Positions 3,593-19,326 of a stretch of 20,000 nt of DNA are shown piece by piece. The stretch lies in assembly GCA_000165425.1 (NCBI GenBank), contig CT868263.1:489103-509102 (forward strand), given 5' to 3'. The first letter of the stretch is position 1; every line of letters starts with the position of its first letter. The DNA comes from Paramecium tetraurelia. Lineage: Eukaryota. The position numbers were made by a program, and so were the translations under genes. A model generated the notes under the pieces. It was not told where the DNA came from. It saw nothing but the letters and a program-made list of their open reading frames with translations, and did not search any database.

Positions 3593-4831
3593 TCAATTAA
3601 AATCAAGTTTGTTACTTTTCAGATAATAGGAAGTACTTTTCTTAAGCTTTTGGGCAACTTACTCAACGATTTAATCTTCAAACTCTAAAAACTTCATAAT
3701 TTTTATTGCTTAGTAAATTGGGGTTAGATTATAAAATATTGTAATGCCTGAGAAATCATCGAAATCATTAAAATCATTGATTTCATTTTATATCAATAAA
3801 TCTTGTTCCTATTTGGAAAATGTTTGAGGGATTTTTTGTAAACAATTTATTCTATCAAATATATTCATCTAGGTTTCAATAATGATTTATTCATTGCATT
3901 AAATATCTAGCATATAATCCTGATAGATCTTTCTAGAAACCAGCCCAAAAGTATTTATATCAAATAAACATAATTATTCAAGTTCCTCTTCGTTTTAAGA
4001 AGATATTTTACAACAAATGTATAAATCATTTACAAATAAGATTTGTTCAATACTTATAATATAATTAAAATAATTGATTTCAAAAATTCTTATTGATTCA
4101 TTTTACTCATTAATAAACTCTATGAAGGAATTTAAATCAGTTTTAGGAGTAAAAGCCAATAATATTTATTTATTTGATTAAGCACATCCATTTAAAGAAT
4201 TCCTATCATTTAGAAATTTCGATTATAAGTTTTATTGAACTCCTTATGAATTTATTTCACAGAGTGTTTATTCCAAATCATTTTCTAAATATAATGCGAT
4301 AAAATAGTTATGCTAATTTAATTAATAAATGGATTTCAAGAGTTAATTTTGTTTTTTATCTATGAGATTAAATTAAGACTAAATTTCCAAATTGCTATTT
4401 AAAAAGTAACAAATAATAGAACCGAATTCATATTGAATTAATAACATAGTTAATTTGGTTATTCTAAAATAAAAGGTTGTATAGCTTTGATAAGTTTGAG
4501 GAAGCTTGAATTTTGTTTATACTTTATTCATTTTGAGGAAGTCAAATGACTCAATCATAAAAGCATCACTTTGATCATAATGAGCCAAGGCTAAGCTGGA
4601 TTCTCCACATAAAAAAGCAAAAAAAGGAATGTAGTCAATCTTTCTAATCTATAATAGTAAATATTACATCAATTTTCGGGTATCTTTTAGTTCAAGTTCT
4701 ATTACATCATAATAATAGTCTTTATTAAAATTTATAAGCATTACAACCAGACCACAATTTAAATAATACGTTTAATGAAGTTCGCTCTGCTTTCTTAATT
4801 GAACATTCTCTAATTAATTAAATTCAAACAT
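3593..4831 (-). CDS. Hypothetical protein, 412 aa
   Basis: Uninterrupted 1239-nt frame from ATG4831 (MFEFNQLENVQLRK) to TGA3593 under the ciliate code; no domain recognised. Confidence 0.75.
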
Positions 4832-4858
4832 TATTATTAATAATATAAAAGAAAATAA

Positions 4859-5778
4859 ATGTCAGACGATCCCAGATTCAAAATTGTTGAAGGAATAGAT
4901 GGAGATTATGTGATCATAGGGTTTCCTCATCATATAGGAGCCAAAAGAGACAATGTTCGAATTGGATAGGACCATGGACCTGATTCTTTAAGAAGATTCT
5001 TGCCTAGAATTGGTCCATTAAGGAATGCTGAATATATGAAAGATATTAGTAATTTTATAGTTTCGGATTATGGAAATATACATGTTGACGATGATTAAAA
5101 TTTAGAAAAACTTTTGGAAAAATTGAATCAGAAAGTGAAAATTGTACACAATAAGAATCACATTCCAATTGTAATAGGAGGATCCAAGGATTGTGTTTTT
5201 GGTGTTCTTAGTGATGATTTGCATGTGATTTCAATTAATCATATTCCTGATATTCAAGTACCATATGATGGCAATAAACCAAGTATTAACTCAGGATTAA
5301 GAGCATCGACAAGTAAAATATCAATTACCTATTTTGGGTATGATAATAGCAAATTAAATTAAGAATAAGAAAATTATATAAATGAAAAATGTAATGGAAT
5401 TAGCTTATAGAAGATTAGGTAAGCATAGAAGGCATTTCATCAAGATCTGGAATAATAAGTTACACAGGCTGGAATTTTATTTAAATAAATACTTACAAAT
5501 CTTTAAGGGAAAAGAATTCATATTTCTATTTCTTTAGAAGCCATAGATGTATATCTTAATAATTATTATAGTCGGCTTTTTGTCCTGGAGTAAGCAGGCC
5601 TTGTGTGTAAGGCTTATAAGTAGAAGAAATATTTGAAATAGTTTATTTGGCAGGTAAATTTTGTGTTGGTTTGGATATTACTGATTATAATCCAACAATT
5701 GAGGATTATCGTACAGGGTTTTTATTAGGAAATCTAATTTATTATTTTATTTTATCAAAAGGAAAGGATATTAAGTGA
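4859..5778 (+). CDS. Ureohydrolase (arginase/formiminoglutamase-like) fold protein with degenerate metal site, 298 aa
   Basis: MSDDPRF, VIIGFPHHIG, GQDHGPDSLRRFL, DYGNI, PIVIGGSKD, SLEAIDSAFCPGVSRPCVQGL and DITDYNPTIEDYRT; intron 5549-5571 (23 nt). Motif order matches formiminoglutamase (HutG-type) proteins. Confidence 0.88.
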
Positions 5779-5847
5779 TATTAATTTTTTGGTATAAATT
5801 TCCCATAAATTATTCCAAATTAATTTATATATTAAAGAATTAAAATA

Positions 5848-7592
5848 ATGATTTAAAAGCATCCTCAAGTAATAACAGTTCTTTTAATTTCTGAAAACGA
5901 AGAAAAAGTCTAGAATTTCATGAAACGAATAAATTCAAATAAGCTAGAAAATCAAGAGAGAACTATTAATCTTTATTATTAACCAATTGATTTAAATAAT
6001 GATCATAAATGCTTACAATAATTATCAATGTTTGAATATGCAATTCTCTTTTTGAAGGATTTAGAATTTCATTAATTCACTATGGACAACTATAATTTTA
6101 GAATGCTCAAATTACTGCAGTTTTATAAGTACATAATAAAAATTTAACTTTAGATATAAATAAATCTTTATTATTTATGATGAAAATGATAGTAATTCAA
6201 GTATTGCATAATTATAGAATCTATACTCTTGGATTGATCAAGAAGTTAATTCGATCTTCTATGACGAAAGATTTAACGATTAGCAAGAAGAAAACTAGCT
6301 AGGGTTTTCAATCCCTAAAATTAAAATCTTAAGTGAACCAACTCAGAATGATTTCATGGAATTTTTCAACGATGAAGCAGATATTAAAGATTCTGATTTA
6401 ATCTTAGCAATCATTAATGAAACAGAGGTGAACAAAGGCATAGCATAAGTGATAGATGGATTCATTTTGAATGGATAAACTGTGCTTTATCAAGAATAAG
6501 TTGCATTATAAAAAGTATAAATTAAAAACTTTGTTGATTACTTTTCAAAATAAGAAAAGAATTTTGCATAAAAAGGAGATATTATTGAATTTTAATTTGA
6601 TTTAAAAAAGAAAATAAATGGGCTTCTAATAGGATTAAGGTAAGATAAATATCTACTCCAACCTAAAGAAATCAAAGGTGATTTTATATGTCCATAGATA
6701 GTGGGATAGGGTGGAATATAGAAAATCTAGAAATCAGATTCAAAGGCATTTTTTTATGGAATTGAATGTATATATTTTAATTACAATTAAAGGTTAGATT
6801 GAGAAGAAAAAAATATTTGGATAATTAGAGAATGGTACTTATAAAGATTTCAAGAATATAACATCAAAACCATTTGGAATGTCATTTAGGATTAGTAAAC
6901 AACTTTACTTGACTCCAAACATACTTTAAAAGAATATAATTTTATCTATTCCCAAAAACAAGAATTTAACATAACAATAAATTTTTTGTGGAAAAATAAA
7001 GACTTAAGATATATTTTAAGTCACAAAAGTGCAGGTTCAAAAGAAAAAAGTAGTTTTAATTCCTGAATTGACAAGTATTCCATCAGAAAATATGATCAAC
7101 AATGGGGTGGACTATAGATAAAGATGTAGAGTGTGCAGAACTGAAAGGGCTAGATATGTTCCTACTAATTGTGGGCATCTAAGATATTGCAACGATTGTA
7201 AAGATATATGTATGGAAGCAAAACAGTGCTTATATTGCGATAAACCTAGCAATAACACTCAAAGTTTCAATATTCATCTTACAAAATAACAACTTTAAAA
7301 TCTCAAATCAATGACTGAATAACAAATTATTGAATATTTTGCAAACCATCCTGATAAAGAAATGCTGCCTTTTATGAAAGTTTATAATGAAATTAACGAT
7401 GAATAGAACATTTATTTCGAAGTAAACTGCGACAACTGCGATTCAAGAATTACTCAATACTCTATTTGTATTAATAATCATTAAACACTACTTTGTGATG
7501 AATGTTAAATAAAGGAATGTTAGGCATGCAAGGATCAATTACAAAATAAATAAAAAATTATCTTTACATTTCCAGATGATCCAACTGCATGA
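5848..7592 (+). CDS. Degenerate EF1A/eRF3/HBS1-like scaffold fused to two RING fingers (paralog A), 564 aa
   Basis: Introns 6129-6153 and 6768-6792 (25 nt each) restore one frame to TGA 7590-7592. RING1 is CRVC-x11-CGH-x3-CNDC-x9-CLYC (7125-7238); RING2 is CDNC-x9-C-x3-H-x4-CDEC-x4-CQAC (7428-7529). The EF1A-like assignment is inferred from motif order. Confidence 0.88.
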
Positions 7593-7782
7593 ATTTATAA
7601 TCAAAAGTTTTATTAAACAATATTCTGAAAAATAAAAAAGAATTAATCCTCTTAATTATTATTATATTATTATATATATTTGATACATTCAGATATTATA
7701 GGATAGAAAAAGAATTTATTTTTTTTTACATGATCATAAATATTCTTTTATGATCTTGAAGTATTTAATAATAATAATTTAA

Positions 7783-9479
7783 ATGAATATAGTTCTTATA
7801 GCATTTTCAGAAGAATAACAAATATAAACAGCAGATAAATACCAATTTGCTTCCACATGCTATATAACATCTGATATTTACCAGCAATAAAAAGAATTAT
7901 GGAAATTTGATAAAGCTGTTGTTGTTCTTGATTAATTTCCTATAAATTTATCTAAATTAAATAAAGATGAACACCTAACAAACAGTTTAGATCCTAATTT
8001 TTCACTATTTAAAACTCTCAAATTATTAGGGTAAAATTATTCTCTTATATTTTTAGTTATCAATAAGTTTTAGTTTCTTTGGAATAAATAAAATTATAAA
8101 AATACAAGCAGGCAATTTCATAATTAGAATAAACTATTATATCTATATTCAACGATTAAGAAAGAATAATTGAAGAAGAAAGAAATGTCTTTTCGCTTAA
8201 AAATCCAACCGTGAAAGTTGTGTAAAATTGTGAATAGAATGAAATTTAAAAATTCTTTCTTAATGAAATAAATTTAACTACAAATTAAATTGATTAAACA
8301 GAATGTATTGTAGTGAGACATGAAGAAGCATTTCATATTGTTAAGGTTCTTTAAGGAGCATTATATGTAGGATAGTTTTTAAAATCGACCACATGTTAAG
8401 CCTGGATATAATAAGTAAAGATTAGTCCAGGAGGTGAAGGTAAAAAATAAAATAAACATAGTGTTTGTTAAATTTGAAGAGAATAAAATATTATAAGGAA
8501 TATTATGTAGCTATCAACATTGTCCTGAATAAATTAATGCATTCGATGTTGAAATATAATTAAGTGAATTACCAATATTGCTTCCAAAAGATGTGTTTAG
8601 AAAAATGGGTTAACTTAAGATGATATTTTACAATCAGGAATATTTGATATAGAACAGCCATAATAGTCCAATTTAATTTTAGGGCATTAAAGATAAAATA
8701 AATGGAAAAATAACTGAAAATCCAACAAAAGTTAATTTTGGTATATGCAAGTTAACACTAAAAATTATCCCAGAAGGGGAGAAAATACTGTTGAATATTA
8801 ATTCAAAGCCCATTGTTTAGTATTTTTTAAATATTAAATTAGTTTTCTTAATAATTATAATACAGTTGTTTTTTATGGACAAATTACAAATATATTAGAA
8901 AGGAAAAATAGATAAATAGATTTAGCATAATATCTTCCTCTTCCAAAATTTGAAAGAACTAAAAATATGACTCTAATAAATAATGAGGATTTAAGATACT
9001 TGTGTAGAATTTGTAAGGCGAAATAAGTTAATCGAGTATTGAAAGAATGTGGTCATTTAAGATATTGTAGTGAATGTGTTGATTTATGTCTTGAATCTAA
9101 GGAATGTTTTTATTGCAATAGATCCCTAAGTAAGTGTTATGCTGTTTCTATAATATATTTGGACTAGATAACTTTTGATTAATTATCTAAAAAGAAAAAC
9201 TAAATTTCTTAAATCAACCCTTCCAAGATAATTTAAGATGAAAACATTTCAACATATTTAAAACTTATCTATGAATAATAAAAGGGGGGAAAGATTAACT
9301 TTTAGACAATTTATTGCAAAATTTGTGATGATTTATTGGCATAAAGATTATTTTCTTGTTCAAATGAACACGTCACATTAACTTGTGAGGAATGCAATCC
9401 TAAAGATTGCAAGGAATGCAAAGCAGACATGATCTAAAAAGTTGAAATTTTATATAAATTTTAAGATGATTTATATTGA
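7783..9479 (+). CDS. Degenerate EF1A/eRF3/HBS1-like scaffold fused to two RING fingers (paralog B), 541 aa
   Basis: Introns 8031-8056 (26 nt), 8440-8461 (22 nt) and 8820-8842 (23 nt); stop TGA 9477-9479. RING1 is CRIC-x11-CGH-x3-CSEC-x9-CFYC (9003-9116); RING2 is CKIC-x10-C-x3-H-x4-CEEC-x4-CKEC (9315-9419). The EF1A-like assignment is inferred from motif order. Confidence 0.88.
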
Positions 9480-9826: not shown

Positions 9827-10489
9827 TCACAATTAAGATGGAACTGTTTAGCATGTGTGTTATCTATTTCTTTCGCTAGTTTACAAAACTTATTTTAGAA
9901 TTAATTTATTACATTTCCGTTAAGACTGCGATGAAGAAATCAACCTTCTTTAAAATTCTTATTATGCTAACACATTAAAATCATTGTAAGTTCCTTTATA
10001 ATTTTAAAGATTACTTTTTGTTTTTTATAAATTTTCTCTATATTACTTTATTCTCTCATTATCCTTCTTGAGAAATTTGATAGGATATTATGAGTGGGCT
10101 GATTAAAGCCTTTTTAATAAAGTCTAATTTTCCAATATTATTTTTGTAGTTTCTTTTCTTCTTAAATGATCAATTGAATATGATGTTGGAGTCTTGAAAC
10201 TAATTTTTTTTTTTTGTATTTCCTTCATTTTAGACATAAGTATAAGGTTTTGATTAACAATATCTAAGTCTTATACTAAAGGAAATTAGAGTTTATCAAA
10301 TACAATGTGTATATTTATTGGCTAATTTTGACAATGAATGCGTTGATTACCAAGGAGGAGAAAGATGTAGGCATGACTTCGCTGTTTAAAGGGTTGTAAT
10401 GTGTTTAAGTTGATCCTAATTTATTCTATATATACTTGAGCTGTTTTCTTTTTAAAACATATCGGATTTTAGTAAAGGAGATTCCACAT
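9827..10489 (-). CDS. CFAP97/Hemingway (KIAA1430)-like ciliary coiled-coil protein, 204 aa
   Basis: ATG10489 (MWNLLYQNPICF) with introns 10416-10435 (20 nt) and 10276-10303 (28 nt). Motifs KHITTLQTAKSCLHLSPP, IVNQNLILMSKMKEI and RRKETTKIILENQTLLKRLQSAHSQY resemble the CFAP97 domain. Confidence 0.75.
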
Positions 10490-10710
10490 TTTATGCTTTA
10501 ATAAAAATATTAGTATAAATTATTTCTATAAGTTAATTCCTTTACGATAGTTAATAAATTGCTTTTAATGGACAGTAAAACAAATAATAATCTTAACTTG
10601 GTTTTGCATTTAATAATTATCAAACCATCAAAATTTTCTTTTAAAATTATTAATCTAGTTTAATTGAGGTATTAGAAGTATTTTTATCATTATGATGCAT
10701 TAATAAAAAA

Positions 10711-12127
10711 ATGTTAATAGGAAATGATTAAAACTTTTAGTGCAATTAATTACTTTAGAAGGATTCTATATTCAATGATGGAAAAGCTTTATGGATAAAC
10801 TAAGATTATGATTCCTCAAAACCAATTGATTAACAGAGGTTTAAAATTGAGTTAGATTCAAAAAATAAAATAAAATAATTAACCCTATATGAAAAATACA
10901 TAAGATATAGTTAACATGTAAAAAGTACATAGATAAATTAGAAAATTATTCTTTTTGAAAATAGTTTCTTGGACCTTGTTCATAATTAATAAAATAAATT
11001 AGTAGGCTTTAGATTAGTAAAATATGATGGAAGTTTGACAATTATAGGAGAATGCAAGCAATGGATTAAAATGTTGAAAAAATATGTGATTTAAAGTGAT
11101 TTTTCTAGAAATTATAAAATAACAAAAAAAATAGGGAATGGAACTTTTGCAGATGTAAATTCTTTTGTAATTTAAGGTTTATTTAGTTAAGCATAAGCAC
11201 ACAAATAAGGAATATGCTGCTAAAATATTTTATAAGAAAAAAATAATTTTGGAGGATAAAGAACTTTTAATGATAACTAAAGAAGTCTAAATAACAAGAC
11301 TCTTTTCTAATCCTAATATTTGTTAATTATATGAGGTTTTTGAATGTAAAGTGCACTTAACTTTAATAATGGATTTATTAGCCGGATCTGAATTAGTTTA
11401 TTCTCTTAAATTGGGAGGATTATCGGAGATTTAATCAATTTTAATAATAAAACCTCTTTTTCAAGCTCTATAACTCTTACATAAGCAAGGAATCTTTCAC
11501 AGAGATATTAAACCATAAAATATAATGCTTCATCAATCTGGTAAATTAGAAACCGCATGTTTAATTGATTTTGGCCTTGCTGATTTCTGGAATCATAAAA
11601 GCGAGTATTTATTCTCCCAATGTGGAACTCCAGGATATGTAGCTCCAGAAATCTTACTTGGGCATTCCTATGATTTCAAAGTTGATGTATATAGTCTAGG
11701 ATTAGTATTGTATTTGATTCTAACAGGTAAAGAACCCTTCTAATCAAAAACAATTGAGGGTCTAATTGAAGAAAATACGTATGGGCATATTGCTTTATCA
11801 CATTTAAATTTATCTCCAAATTGTCTTGATTTTTTATAAAAAGTTCTAGCAAAATCTCCAAATCAAAGATTGACTTCCTAAGAAGCTTTGATACATCCTT
11901 TTTTACTTTTTGGCCCAGGAAATCATTTAGATTTGATTCATAACAAAATGTAATCACCTGAACAATATATTTCTAAAAGTCAATAATTTCGTAAAAGCGT
12001 TGCTTCTCTCAGATTATAAACTGATACTTCGAATAATTAATTGAATTAAAGAGATATTTTTAAAAAGAATGAGTTAGAAAGAAAAGACATCAAAAAATAG
12101 TTTTCAATTCGAAAAGTAAAACTGTGA
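10711..12127 (+). CDS. CAMK-like Ser/Thr protein kinase with N-terminal extension, 464 aa
   Basis: IGNGTFADVY (intron 11155-11176, 22 nt), [38 protein letters not shown] and DVYSLG; stop TGA 12125-12127. All canonical motifs are present. Confidence 0.93.
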
Positions 12128-13239: not shown

Positions 13240-17502
<4,263 letters not shown>

Positions 17503-17599: not shown

Positions 17600-19326
17600 A
17601 TGATTTTCAAAATTTTATTTTTCTTAGCTACTTTGATAATTTTATCACTTTAACTACTAACTTATAAATGGCTTATTCAATCGTACTAAAATGAAATCCT
17701 TGATTACATGGCTGCAATTCAAATTGTATAGAACTGGATTGAATCAGAAACAGACACCAGTGGAACATATTTTCAACCCTGCCTGTAAGCATACTATAAT
17801 ATTAGAAATTGCGGCTATGAACTTGCGATAAAAAAGGATCCCCTTTATTGTTTGAAAAGTGATCTCTATAAAATTTTTCATCCACAGATTGTTTTGGAGG
17901 ATAGTTATGTTTTTCGAGATTATGGAGGAAATGATTTAGCTAGAATTATTATTAAAAACTAAATGTTCGATGTCAGTCCTAACTTTACTCAATCAGGCCC
18001 AATTTAAGAAGACGATTATTTTAACTTAGATATAGTATTTTTGTTGATTTTGAAATTAGCGAGCATCTGTCATTTACCCTTACTCAAAAACATATTTGAG
18101 AACTCATATTTTAGGAAAAGAAGCAGGATGCTTGTTTTAGAAATATATGCATATACCAGGGCAAGAAGAATTAGCTCTAAAATCATTATAATCTTTGAAC
18201 TTAAGAAGTTATTTAATTTAGTTGAGTTAAGTTAATGCATCCATAGAATGTATAAATGAAGCAACTTTTTAGAAAAAATCTTACAGAATGTGGGAGTAAG
18301 ATGAATGCTAATAGCTTTTTTCAATTATTAACTCATTAGAATATTAAAATAAATTGTAATTGGAAGGACTATAATTTATTTATAAAACTAATAAACATTT
18401 AGGAAGAGGAGTCTTACTTGTTGATAAAGAAAATGAATAACTAATAAGAAAATAATATAATAATGGGACGTTTTGTGGTAAAAATAATTAAAATGTCATA
18501 ATTCAAGAATACATAAAAAATCCATATCTGTTTAAGGTAACATAGTTGAATATAATAGGGACATAAAATGGAGTTTCGATCATATTTTTAAATAGCCTCA
18601 ACTAATCCTCCAATTTTATTTGGATATAAAAAAGCTTTAATTAAGCAATGTGCTTTAAAATTTAATTTAACAGATTTTTCAAAAGAAGCTCATGTTTGTA
18701 ATACAGCAATCACAAAATCTCTTAAGGAAGACATTAAATAGCAAAATAATGAATATTATATTGACTGGAATTTAGAAGAATTACAAGATCTTCTATTATA
18801 AGATGGATTAATCATTTCAACAGATTGGTTAAATGAATATCTTATGCCGCAAATTTAACTCAAATTATTTCACCTTTTTAATTCTGTTTAAAATAAACTT
18901 TTTAAAGATAGCCGAGTGGGAGAATTTTTTGGAGTTGATTTCATTTTAGATTAAAATTTGGAACTTTGGATTTTTGAATGTAATAGAAATCCGAACTTTT
19001 TGGTTGTGACAGAAGGAAGAAAGGAAAAATTCAATTAATTAATTCCTGATATGATTTATTTATAGTTAGAGATGGTCAGAAATAGATTCATAAGAATATC
19101 ATAATTTTTAAAATAAAAGTTAATTCCTTCTATTAGGCAAAAGTCTTTATTAGAATAATAGGAATTATTAAAGCATGAATTTCTGATTAATTATCAAGAT
19201 AGTTTCTAAAATTAATCTTAATTGAATATTGATAATTAGGCGATTGATATTACTCCAATATAAAATTTTAGCACCTGTTTTAAGGAATTAGAGAAGATAA
19301 AAATACTATAAAAGAAAAATTATTGA
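17600..19326 (+). CDS. Tubulin-tyrosine-ligase-like (TTLL, ATP-grasp) protein with N-terminal signal peptide/anchor, 559 aa
   Basis: Introns 18035-18059 (25 nt) and 18537-18558 (22 nt). Motifs HIPGQEELALK, FIYKTNKHLGRGV, IQEYIKNPYLFKGHKMEFRSY, HVCNTAI and EFFGVDFILDQNLELWIFECNRNP; hydrophobic start MIFKILFFLATLIILSLQLL. Confidence 0.9.

Follow-up and report, generated by a model that had tools for sequence, protein, structure and literature searches.

A tandem pair of RING genes in the macronuclear genome

The window considered here is a stretch of 20,000 nucleotides (nt) of macronuclear DNA from Paramecium tetraurelia, within which all positions are numbered. It contains two consecutive annotated genes, gene A and gene B, located on the same strand of a single 509-kb scaffold and separated by 190 bases. 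In the deposited annotation both are merely termed 'RING-type domain-containing protein'. As judged from predicted structures, this label covers a probable fusion between a three-domain module of the EF-Tu/EF1A class, devoid of a nucleotide site, and a RING finger followed by a second zinc finger. The hallmarks of the Paramecium macronuclear genome are short GTA...AG introns, TAA and TAG codons read as glutamine, and AT-richness. In the window the G+C content is 26%, introns are 22-26 nt long with GTA...AG ends, and frames are open only when TAA and TAG are read as glutamine. Gene A has 28 TAA and 11 TAG codons in frame, gene B has 35 and 6, and both stop at TGA. The genes are organized as follows:

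Gene A, 5848-7592, + strand: GSPATT00012872001 (P0004), 564 amino acids; spliced translation identical to the deposited protein
Gene A exons, + strand: 5848-6128, 6154-6767 and 6793-7592; the spliced product is P0004 exactly
Gene A introns, + strand: 6129-6153 (25 nt) and 6768-6792 (25 nt, AAG end)
Gene B, 7783-9479, + strand: GSPATT00012873001 (P0028), 541 amino acids; spliced translation identical to the deposited protein
Gene B exons, + strand: 7783-8030, 8057-8439, 8462-8819 and 8843-9479; introns of 26, 22 and 23 nt

Both gene models are based on identity to the deposited proteins and on the length of orthologues. The tandem pair proposed in the initial annotation, which had been made from the DNA sequence alone, is indeed there, as two same-strand genes whose translations with genetic code 6 match the deposited proteins exactly. 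In a protein search, exon 2 of gene A was 100% identical to the 564-residue P. tetraurelia protein P0004, while P0028, the product of gene B, is the P. tetraurelia member of the P0001 cluster. A version of gene A with a 58-nt intron at 6640-6697 (543 amino acids) was dropped, as the deposited protein and orthologues of 564 or 565 residues fit the 25-nt intron at 6768-6792. The acceptor of this second intron is AAG instead of the usual TAG, and an alternative TAG lies 5 nt downstream (making a 30-nt intron). Use of that site puts a TGA two codons later, so that mis-splicing there would truncate the gene A protein.

Two zinc fingers

The carboxy-terminal parts of the two proteins are the easiest to place. 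Sequence comparisons and motif scans covered 11 family members, and the scores given below are expectation values (E) or bits:

7119-7253, + strand: gene A residues 408-452, C3HC4 RING; Pfam zf-C3HC4_3, E 3.3e-6, 27.2 bits against a cut-off of 27
8997-9134, + strand: gene B residues 382-427, C3HC4 RING, in the last exon; Pfam zf-C3HC4_3, E 1.1e-7, 31.9 bits
7425-7541, + strand: gene A residues 510-548, second zinc finger, C-x2-C-x9-C-x3-H-x4-C-x2-C-x4-C-x2-C
9312-9431, + strand: gene B residues 487-526, second zinc finger; eight Cys/His ligands, all in invariant columns

All eight ligands of the first finger (C410, C413, C425, H427, C431, C434, C444 and C447 in gene A numbering) are invariant in the 11 sequences. 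Every member matches PF13920 (zf-C3HC4_3), with a best E of 6.2e-12, and one orthologue, P0006, stands under the curated cut-off of 27 bits with 23.1 bits. The best matches of this finger are the C3HC4_3 RINGs of RNF123 (2ma6_A, E 8e-4) and of cIAP, XIAP and MUL1 (E 0.014-0.12). Many proteins of the IAP, MUL1 and RNF123 type carry their RING at the carboxy-terminus. By contrast, that of the Paramecium proteins lies about 110 residues away from it, with the second finger behind, and the surroundings are unrelated.

The second finger is of a less familiar kind. Its ligands (C511, C514, C524, H528, C533, C536, C541 and C544 in gene A) are again invariant in 11 sequences and follow the C3HC4 order. 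The corresponding profiles remain under threshold: Sina_RING at E 0.016-0.022 (0.018 for gene B), KAP1 B-box 2 at E 0.053, and zf-B_box at E 2.7 on the fragment P0010. A phmmer search of the gene A finger against the sequences of the PDB was uninformative, with a best E of 0.28 (NEIL3, eS27). The two RING fingers read by eye in each protein thus fared unequally. The first is a RING by its Pfam family, while the second has the eight invariant ligands and sub-threshold profiles, so that it is a putative RING only. 'Double RING' is a fair description of the ligand pattern, and it is not established as a family assignment of the second finger. With these features both proteins are probably RING-type E3 ubiquitin ligases, as predicted from their sequence.

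A family found in Paramecium

Orthologues of gene A are present in P. primaurelia (72% identity) and P. sonneborni (62%), and those of gene B in P. octaurelia, P. pentaurelia and P. sonneborni; the P. octaurelia protein, P0001, shares 495 of the 541 residues of gene B. Overall identity between A and B is 24-27%. Between the amino-terminal parts taken alone, similarity is significant, with a BLASTP E of 5.8e-9 over 189 residues and an hhalign probability of 83.6% over 177 columns. At this level of identity the tandem duplication must be old, and the paralogy includes the amino-terminal module. Within orthologue groups identity is 58-77% in the amino-terminal domains, 57-74% in other segments outside the fingers, and 78-81% in the RING. 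The module, being as similar as the other non-finger segments, would therefore be constrained and functional, maintained and not decaying.

A further group of paralogues, group C, is founded by P0013 and comprises five members from the aurelia complex (P0026, P0013, P0024, P0025 and P0027; 552-554 amino acids), of which P0026 belongs to P. tetraurelia, at a locus different from that of A and B. These proteins have the same RING and second finger as A and B. With the fingers removed, their amino-terminal part displayed no detectable homology to that of A or B (E at least 0.027; hhalign probability 0.2-1.6%).

How far does this family extend? A profile made of six members, run against 1.84 billion representative proteins, gave 19 matches at E<=1e-3. 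Three of these, P0005, P0003 and P0013, cover the amino-terminal part, and all three come from Paramecium; the others are RING-only or short fragments. As far as databases show, the full-length family is found only in Paramecium. In a metagenome scan with the family alignment, 30 stretches fitted the pattern CGHLRYCx[DE], and confirmation was obtained for none of them.

Several short unnamed proteins (P0007, P0008, P0009, P0010 and P0012; 45-160 amino acids) display the CGHLRYC signature or the second finger, and are probably fragments of further members. In P0011 (247 amino acids) both fingers stand behind a different, short amino-terminus, so that a form of the family without the EF-Tu-like module may exist. 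The amino-terminus of P0008 had been considered as the sequence of an EF1A-like domain III. This was dropped, as Pfam gives RING families only.

Predicted fold of the amino-terminal module

By none of the sequence methods applied were the amino-terminal 370 residues or so linked to translational GTPases, and what backs the likeness first seen by eye is predicted structure. An AlphaFold2 model of the gene A protein was built from the 11-sequence alignment, and the fold of gene B was tested on a model of its P. octaurelia orthologue, P0001. Confidence per residue is given as the predicted local distance difference test (pLDDT). The segments are:

5848-6382, + strand: gene A residues 1-170, predicted Ras/GTPase-like alpha/beta domain without G1-G5 (model, motif scan)
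6383-6658, + strand: gene A residues 171-262, predicted beta-rich segment in the position of EF-Tu domain II; strands at pLDDT 25-37
6659-7013, + strand: gene A residues 263-372, predicted beta-barrel in the position of EF-Tu/EF1A domain III; all-beta, pLDDT 54-64 for most of 290-370
7783-8897, + strand: gene B residues 1-348, putative amino-terminal module, GTPase-like over 1-160 and then beta-rich (homology to A, model)

In gene A, residues 7-165 run as beta-alpha-beta-beta-alpha-beta-alpha-beta-alpha-beta-alpha, with pLDDT 52-72 in most blocks of ten residues and dips to 38-39. Compared with the PDB using Foldseek, the model matches 243 chains at E<=1e-3, the best being aEF1A (3wya, E 2e-8). 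All 40 matches listed are EF-Tu-class factors or complexes holding one, as the titles of 35 of them say. They include aEF1A, EF-Tu, SelB, Hbs1, eRF3 and Ski7, aligned over 410-510 columns at 8-12% identity. The GDPNP form of EF-Tu fits with a TM-score by target of 0.48 and a root-mean-square deviation (rmsd) of 8.1, as against about 0.3 and about 14 for GDP forms of EF-Tu or EF1A; given the quality of the model, this apparently better fit of GTP-form structures is not to lean on.

Structural comparison with VIA points the same way. Residues 1-370 of gene A span all three domains of aIF2gamma, Hbs1, eRF3, eEF1A, Ski7, SelB and EF-Tu, with Z 13.3-14.9, rmsd 3.9-5.4 and 240-299 aligned residues. 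A VIA scan, independent of Foldseek, covered 48,161 representative PDB chains; a best Z of 7-8 is given as typical when a model has no clear match. Its ranks 1-15 (Z 12.1-14.7, residues 1-372) are occupied by Hbs1, eRF3, EF-Pyl, SelB, GTPBP1, Ski7, CysN and eIF2gamma. The top row is Hbs1 3p26_A, with Z 14.7, rmsd 3.9 and 258 aligned residues, long low-confidence stretches being trimmed. Ranks 16 and 17 are pre-ribosomal chains, from the small-subunit processome and the pre-40S particle, which we take to be Bms1 and Tsr1 (Z 11.6 and 11.2, residues 1-371). Lower rows contain single-domain GTPases (Rab, Rag, Roc) at Z of about 10-11, aligned to residues 5-173 only.

Another predictor and another protein provide independent support for an EF-Tu-class fold. 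The ESM Atlas has its own model of the group C protein P0026, with a predicted template modelling score (pTM) of 0.33 and a pLDDT of 0.49. The ten structural clusters nearest to it all contain PF00009 GTP_EFTU, of the CysN and SelB types, with TM-scores of 0.38-0.45 over 183-237 aligned residues. For the gene B family, Foldseek places EF-Tu, Hbs1 and SelB first on the P0001 model (best EF-Tu, E 1.1e-4, TM-score 0.25). Among the 46 matches listed, at E 1e-4 to 1e-2, 37 name such a factor and six are unrelated.

The initial annotation had proposed an EF1A-type three-domain module in both proteins, on the strength of short motif strings aligned by eye. The strings themselves are real: 18 of 18 checked are present in the stated order, and the gene A model places them on matching elements (beta1 at 7-14, a strand at 64-69, helix 85-92 followed by strand 97-102, and strands at 188-200, 236-242 and 361-367). 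For gene A the predicted fold, by Foldseek and VIA, agrees with the proposal, the structures of EF1A, eRF3 and HBS1 being among those matched by a low-confidence model when the suggested AlphaFold and Foldseek comparison was made. For gene B the model supports a GTPase-like first domain only, so that the three-domain claim for B stems mainly from homology to A. Sequence did not bear the proposal out.

Which branch of the class is concerned is harder to say. The Z values for gene A are tied within about one unit among aIF2gamma, Hbs1, eRF3, eEF1A, Ski7, SelB, EF-Pyl, GTPBP1 and EF-Tu, and because of these ties an EF1A/eRF3/HBS1 origin is inseparable from one in eIF2gamma, SelB or EF-Tu. The label 'EF1A/eRF3/HBS1-like' given to both proteins is consistent with ranks 1-3 of the VIA scan and seems reasonable for a eukaryotic protein, while the ties leave the subfamily undemonstrated.

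Absence of the GTPase motifs

Members of this class are expected to display the motifs of GTPases. None of the G1, G3, G4 and G5 patterns (P-loop, DxxG, NKxD and SA[KL]) was found at the expected places within the first 200 residues of any of the 11 sequences, and the loss of GTP-binding motifs noticed at the outset holds for the whole set. The one DHIG present, at residue 16 in P0026, shows no conservation. The stretch YGTAIDHIGLKE in the same protein was considered as a relic of the G1 motif and rejected, as it is not conserved among group C orthologues. An acidic loop of three residues joins strand 1 to helix 1 in both A and B, as seen in the gene A model and the motif scan. Should the fold assignment be right, the absence of G motifs in all 11 sequences means that nucleotide binding has been lost.

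Comparison with known systems

The best structural counterparts of gene A are Hbs1, eRF3 and eEF1A (3p26_A, Z 14.7; 5lzt_jj, Z 14.6; 5lzs_jj, Z 14.3). The predicted order and packing are the same, with a G-like alpha/beta domain followed by two beta-barrels. Unlike these factors, the Paramecium proteins have neither G motifs nor any detectable sequence likeness to them, and they end with a RING and a second finger. Ski7 would be similar in its manner of working, as an EF1A-class module used as an adaptor and not as a cycling GTPase (4zkd and 4zke, Z 13.6-14.2, 14% identity to the gene A model). However, according to the titles of its structure entries Ski7 still binds GTP, and it has no RING, whereas the Paramecium proteins have lost the whole site. 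The amino-terminal part of Ski7 binds the exosome, and it has no counterpart in the Paramecium proteins.

A multi-domain, EF-Tu-like protein devoid of active-site residues is already known in Tsr1. It is described as a solved, inactive EF-Tu-like mimic, lacking a nucleotide site and acting on the small ribosomal subunit (PMC4895721). It differs in having a lower structural score than Hbs1 or eRF3, in having no RING, and in being conserved across eukaryotes, while the family considered here was found in Paramecium only.

On the side of the ligases, the likeness is that of RING-type E3 chemistry, to which a shared class of targets, ribosomal proteins or factors stuck in the A site, would be added if our interpretation is right. 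ZNF598/Hel2 is a RING-type E3 of ribosome quality control. The animal ligases RNF14 and RNF25 attach ubiquitin to factors that are trapped on ribosomes, as stated in two reports (10.1101/2022.03.21.485216; 10.64898/2026.04.27.721104). Ligases of the RNF14, RNF25 and ZNF598 type reach the ribosome by other domains or via GCN1, and in the abstracts of these two reports no EF-Tu-like module is described for them. Their sequence relationship with the Paramecium proteins is limited to the RING class.

Neighbouring genes

Two protein-kinase genes flank the region, at 202-1494 and 11090-12124 (both on the + strand; Pfam Pkinase, E 1e-59 and 9e-58). The frame 4550-5848 (+), immediately before gene A, carries an arginase-family domain (PF00491, E 2.4e-12). 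As this frame reaches the start codon of gene A, either very little intergenic DNA separates the two genes or the spliced upstream gene ends before its open frame does. Further downstream, 13425-17366 (+) is a single frame of 1314 amino acids for a class-I-like phosphoinositide 3-kinase, with RBD, C2, PIK and catalytic domains. Two frames are related to cilium or tubulin: 9830-10627 (-), with a CFAP97/Hemingway domain (E 9e-8), and 18550-19323 (+), of the tubulin-tyrosine-ligase family (E 1.8e-14).

Proposed mechanism and its alternatives

What could such a fusion achieve? The amino-terminal 350-370 residues, with their G-like domain and two beta-barrels, would be the part that recognizes a substrate or a site. 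Permanently 'on-shaped' and independent of nucleotides, the module would behave as a factor mimic, docking at the factor-binding site of the ribosome or on a tRNA-shaped partner (eRF1, Pelota or aminoacyl-tRNA). A charged E2, brought in by the RING, would then ubiquitinate nearby ribosomal proteins or trapped factors. Since most solved three-domain cores dock at the ribosomal factor site with a tRNA-shaped ligand, and considering Tsr1 together with RNF14 and RNF25, a factor mimic bringing a RING may be the most economical mechanism. We tentatively favour the view, as a nearly even call, that A and B are old tandem paralogues in which a RING E3 is combined with a degenerate EF-Tu/EF1A-class core lacking a nucleotide site, this core being a factor-mimic targeting module for ubiquitination at the ribosome or on its factors. 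Even granted an EF-Tu-class module, that its target would be the ribosome or a translation factor is, by analogy, a tentative proposition somewhat short of probable. An extended version, with a whole Paramecium family of factor-mimic ligases whose permanently GTP-shaped, nucleotide-free EF1A/eRF3/HBS1-like modules would sit at the factor site or on eRF1, Pelota or aminoacyl-tRNA and carry a RING straight to the A-site region, and where A, B and C might mimic different factors, appears rather unlikely.

The main alternative concerns function. The module might be a genuine EF-Tu-class relic that was re-used as a scaffold for a substrate unrelated to the ribosome, A and B being then lineage-specific RING E3s involved in a process particular to Paramecium. 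The evidence from the fold is the same in both cases. There is a ready example in CysN, rank 10 in the VIA scan, whose EF-Tu-class module is not ribosomal and uses the same three domains to regulate CysD within ATP sulfurylase; CysN 1zun_B scores Z 12.7 with A and Z 10.6 with B, and clusters of CysN dominate the Atlas neighbours of P0026. Furthermore, all the residues needed for GTP-dependent cycling on the ribosome are gone, components of core translation quality control are not usually so narrowly distributed, full-length members having been found in Paramecium only out of 1.84 billion representatives, and the neighbouring genes (kinases, arginase-family, CFAP97, phosphoinositide 3-kinase, tubulin-tyrosine ligase) give no hint of translation. 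However, most solved EF-Tu-class modules among the matches act on the ribosome, as does inactive Tsr1 (PMC4895721), and no result points to an alternative partner. We place this re-use on the unlikely side, while taking it seriously.

A more radical objection is that the EF-Tu likeness results from poor models, A and B being RING E3s with an orphan domain, namely an alpha/beta and beta-rich region specific to Paramecium. The sequence tests, all negative, go in this direction. No GTP_EFTU, GTP_EFTU_D2, GTP_EFTU_D3/GTP-eEF1A_C or other GTPase family was found by Pfam at E<=10 in seven exon pieces or in the 11 proteins, and the family profile, run against all PDB sequences, retrieved RING or B-box chains and haemoglobin noise, without any GTPase. 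With hhalign the probability was 0.12% against E. coli EF-Tu and 0.07% against a 75-sequence alignment (E. coli EF-Tu and 74 bacterial EF-Tu sequences from 80 fetched loci), a template that is bacterial only, which makes the test weaker than one with HHpred. Hence the likeness to EF1A that had been read by eye was not confirmed at the level of sequence: taken alone, the short matches are not above chance. An ESM Atlas feature search with P0004 and P0026 gave nothing above 0.76 (archaeal hypothetical proteins), under the threshold for a lead.

The models themselves have a mean pLDDT of 49.8 and a pTM of 0.41 for gene A, and of 45.6 and 0.30 for P0001. Values are mostly under 70, under 40 in the putative domain II of both A and B, and under 50 over residues 152-375 of P0001. 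Foldseek TM-scores by target are low, 0.27-0.49 for gene A and 0.10-0.28 for the translational-GTPase rows of P0001, and those of the Atlas model are under 0.5. As the amino-terminus of group C is not detectably homologous to that of A and B, its inclusion may have misled the folding alignment. With VIA only residues 1-160 of P0001 were aligned, at Z 9-10.7 (the best being the G domain of Hbs1L, 10.7), and receiver (CheY-like), Rossmann-like and other alpha/beta folds score there nearly as well as GTPases; in our opinion the absent three-domain match would show a poor model, not a different fold.

Against this objection, two predictors applied to three different proteins placed EF-Tu-class factors first each time. 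The three-domain Z of 14.7 for gene A contrasts with the 7-8 typical of models without a clear match and stands 3-4 units over single-domain GTPases, while the trimmed alignment, without the long stretches of low pLDDT, keeps 258 residues at rmsd 3.9. A mere modelling artefact thus seems quite unlikely, and we consider it likely that the predicted module is truly of the EF-Tu class. It is highly improbable that it comes from the Bms1/Tsr1 branch of ribosome-biogenesis factors, and would act on pre-40S particles: the chains at ranks 16-17, taken here for Bms1 and Tsr1, do cover residues 1-371 of A, the G-like domain of B matches similar chains at Z 9.8-10.4, ESM features for P0026 place a Tsr1 G-like cluster at rank 5 (score 0.75, a lead only) and Tsr1 itself is described as having no nucleotide site (PMC4895721), but for A Hbs1 and eRF3 stand 3 Z units higher than these chains, and none of the 11 members matched an AARP2CN or Tsr1 Pfam family at E<=10.

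What the fusion may mean

Taken separately, RING ligases and inactive GTPase mimics are familiar; no description was found of a whole EF-Tu-class core fused with a RING, as predicted here. In open full text (subscription-only papers being outside the search), we retrieved no relevant paper on such a fusion, and nothing relevant for the identifiers GSPATT00012872001 and GSPATT00012873001. In a survey of translational GTPases, a term search of the text returned no occurrence of 'zinc finger' or 'ubiquitin' (Atkinson, 2015; PMC4342817). To be sure, the weight of the finding is limited by a distribution restricted to Paramecium and by weak models.

Several consequences may be considered. If the module was re-used elsewhere than on the ribosome, it would still be a clear case of domain exaptation, visible by its fold only and invisible to sequence profiles. 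If it docks as its ancestors did, it would provide, beside Tsr1, a further case of a GTPase fold kept after the loss of its nucleotide. RNA interference by feeding works in Paramecium. With docking at the place where the ancestors docked, these genes would therefore offer a direct and genetically tractable handle on the delivery of ubiquitin to the ribosomal A site. Finally, if the interpretation of the module as a factor mimic is true, it would amount to ribosome surveillance by molecular mimicry, for which no counterpart has been described, in a lineage where UAA and UAG are translated as glutamine.

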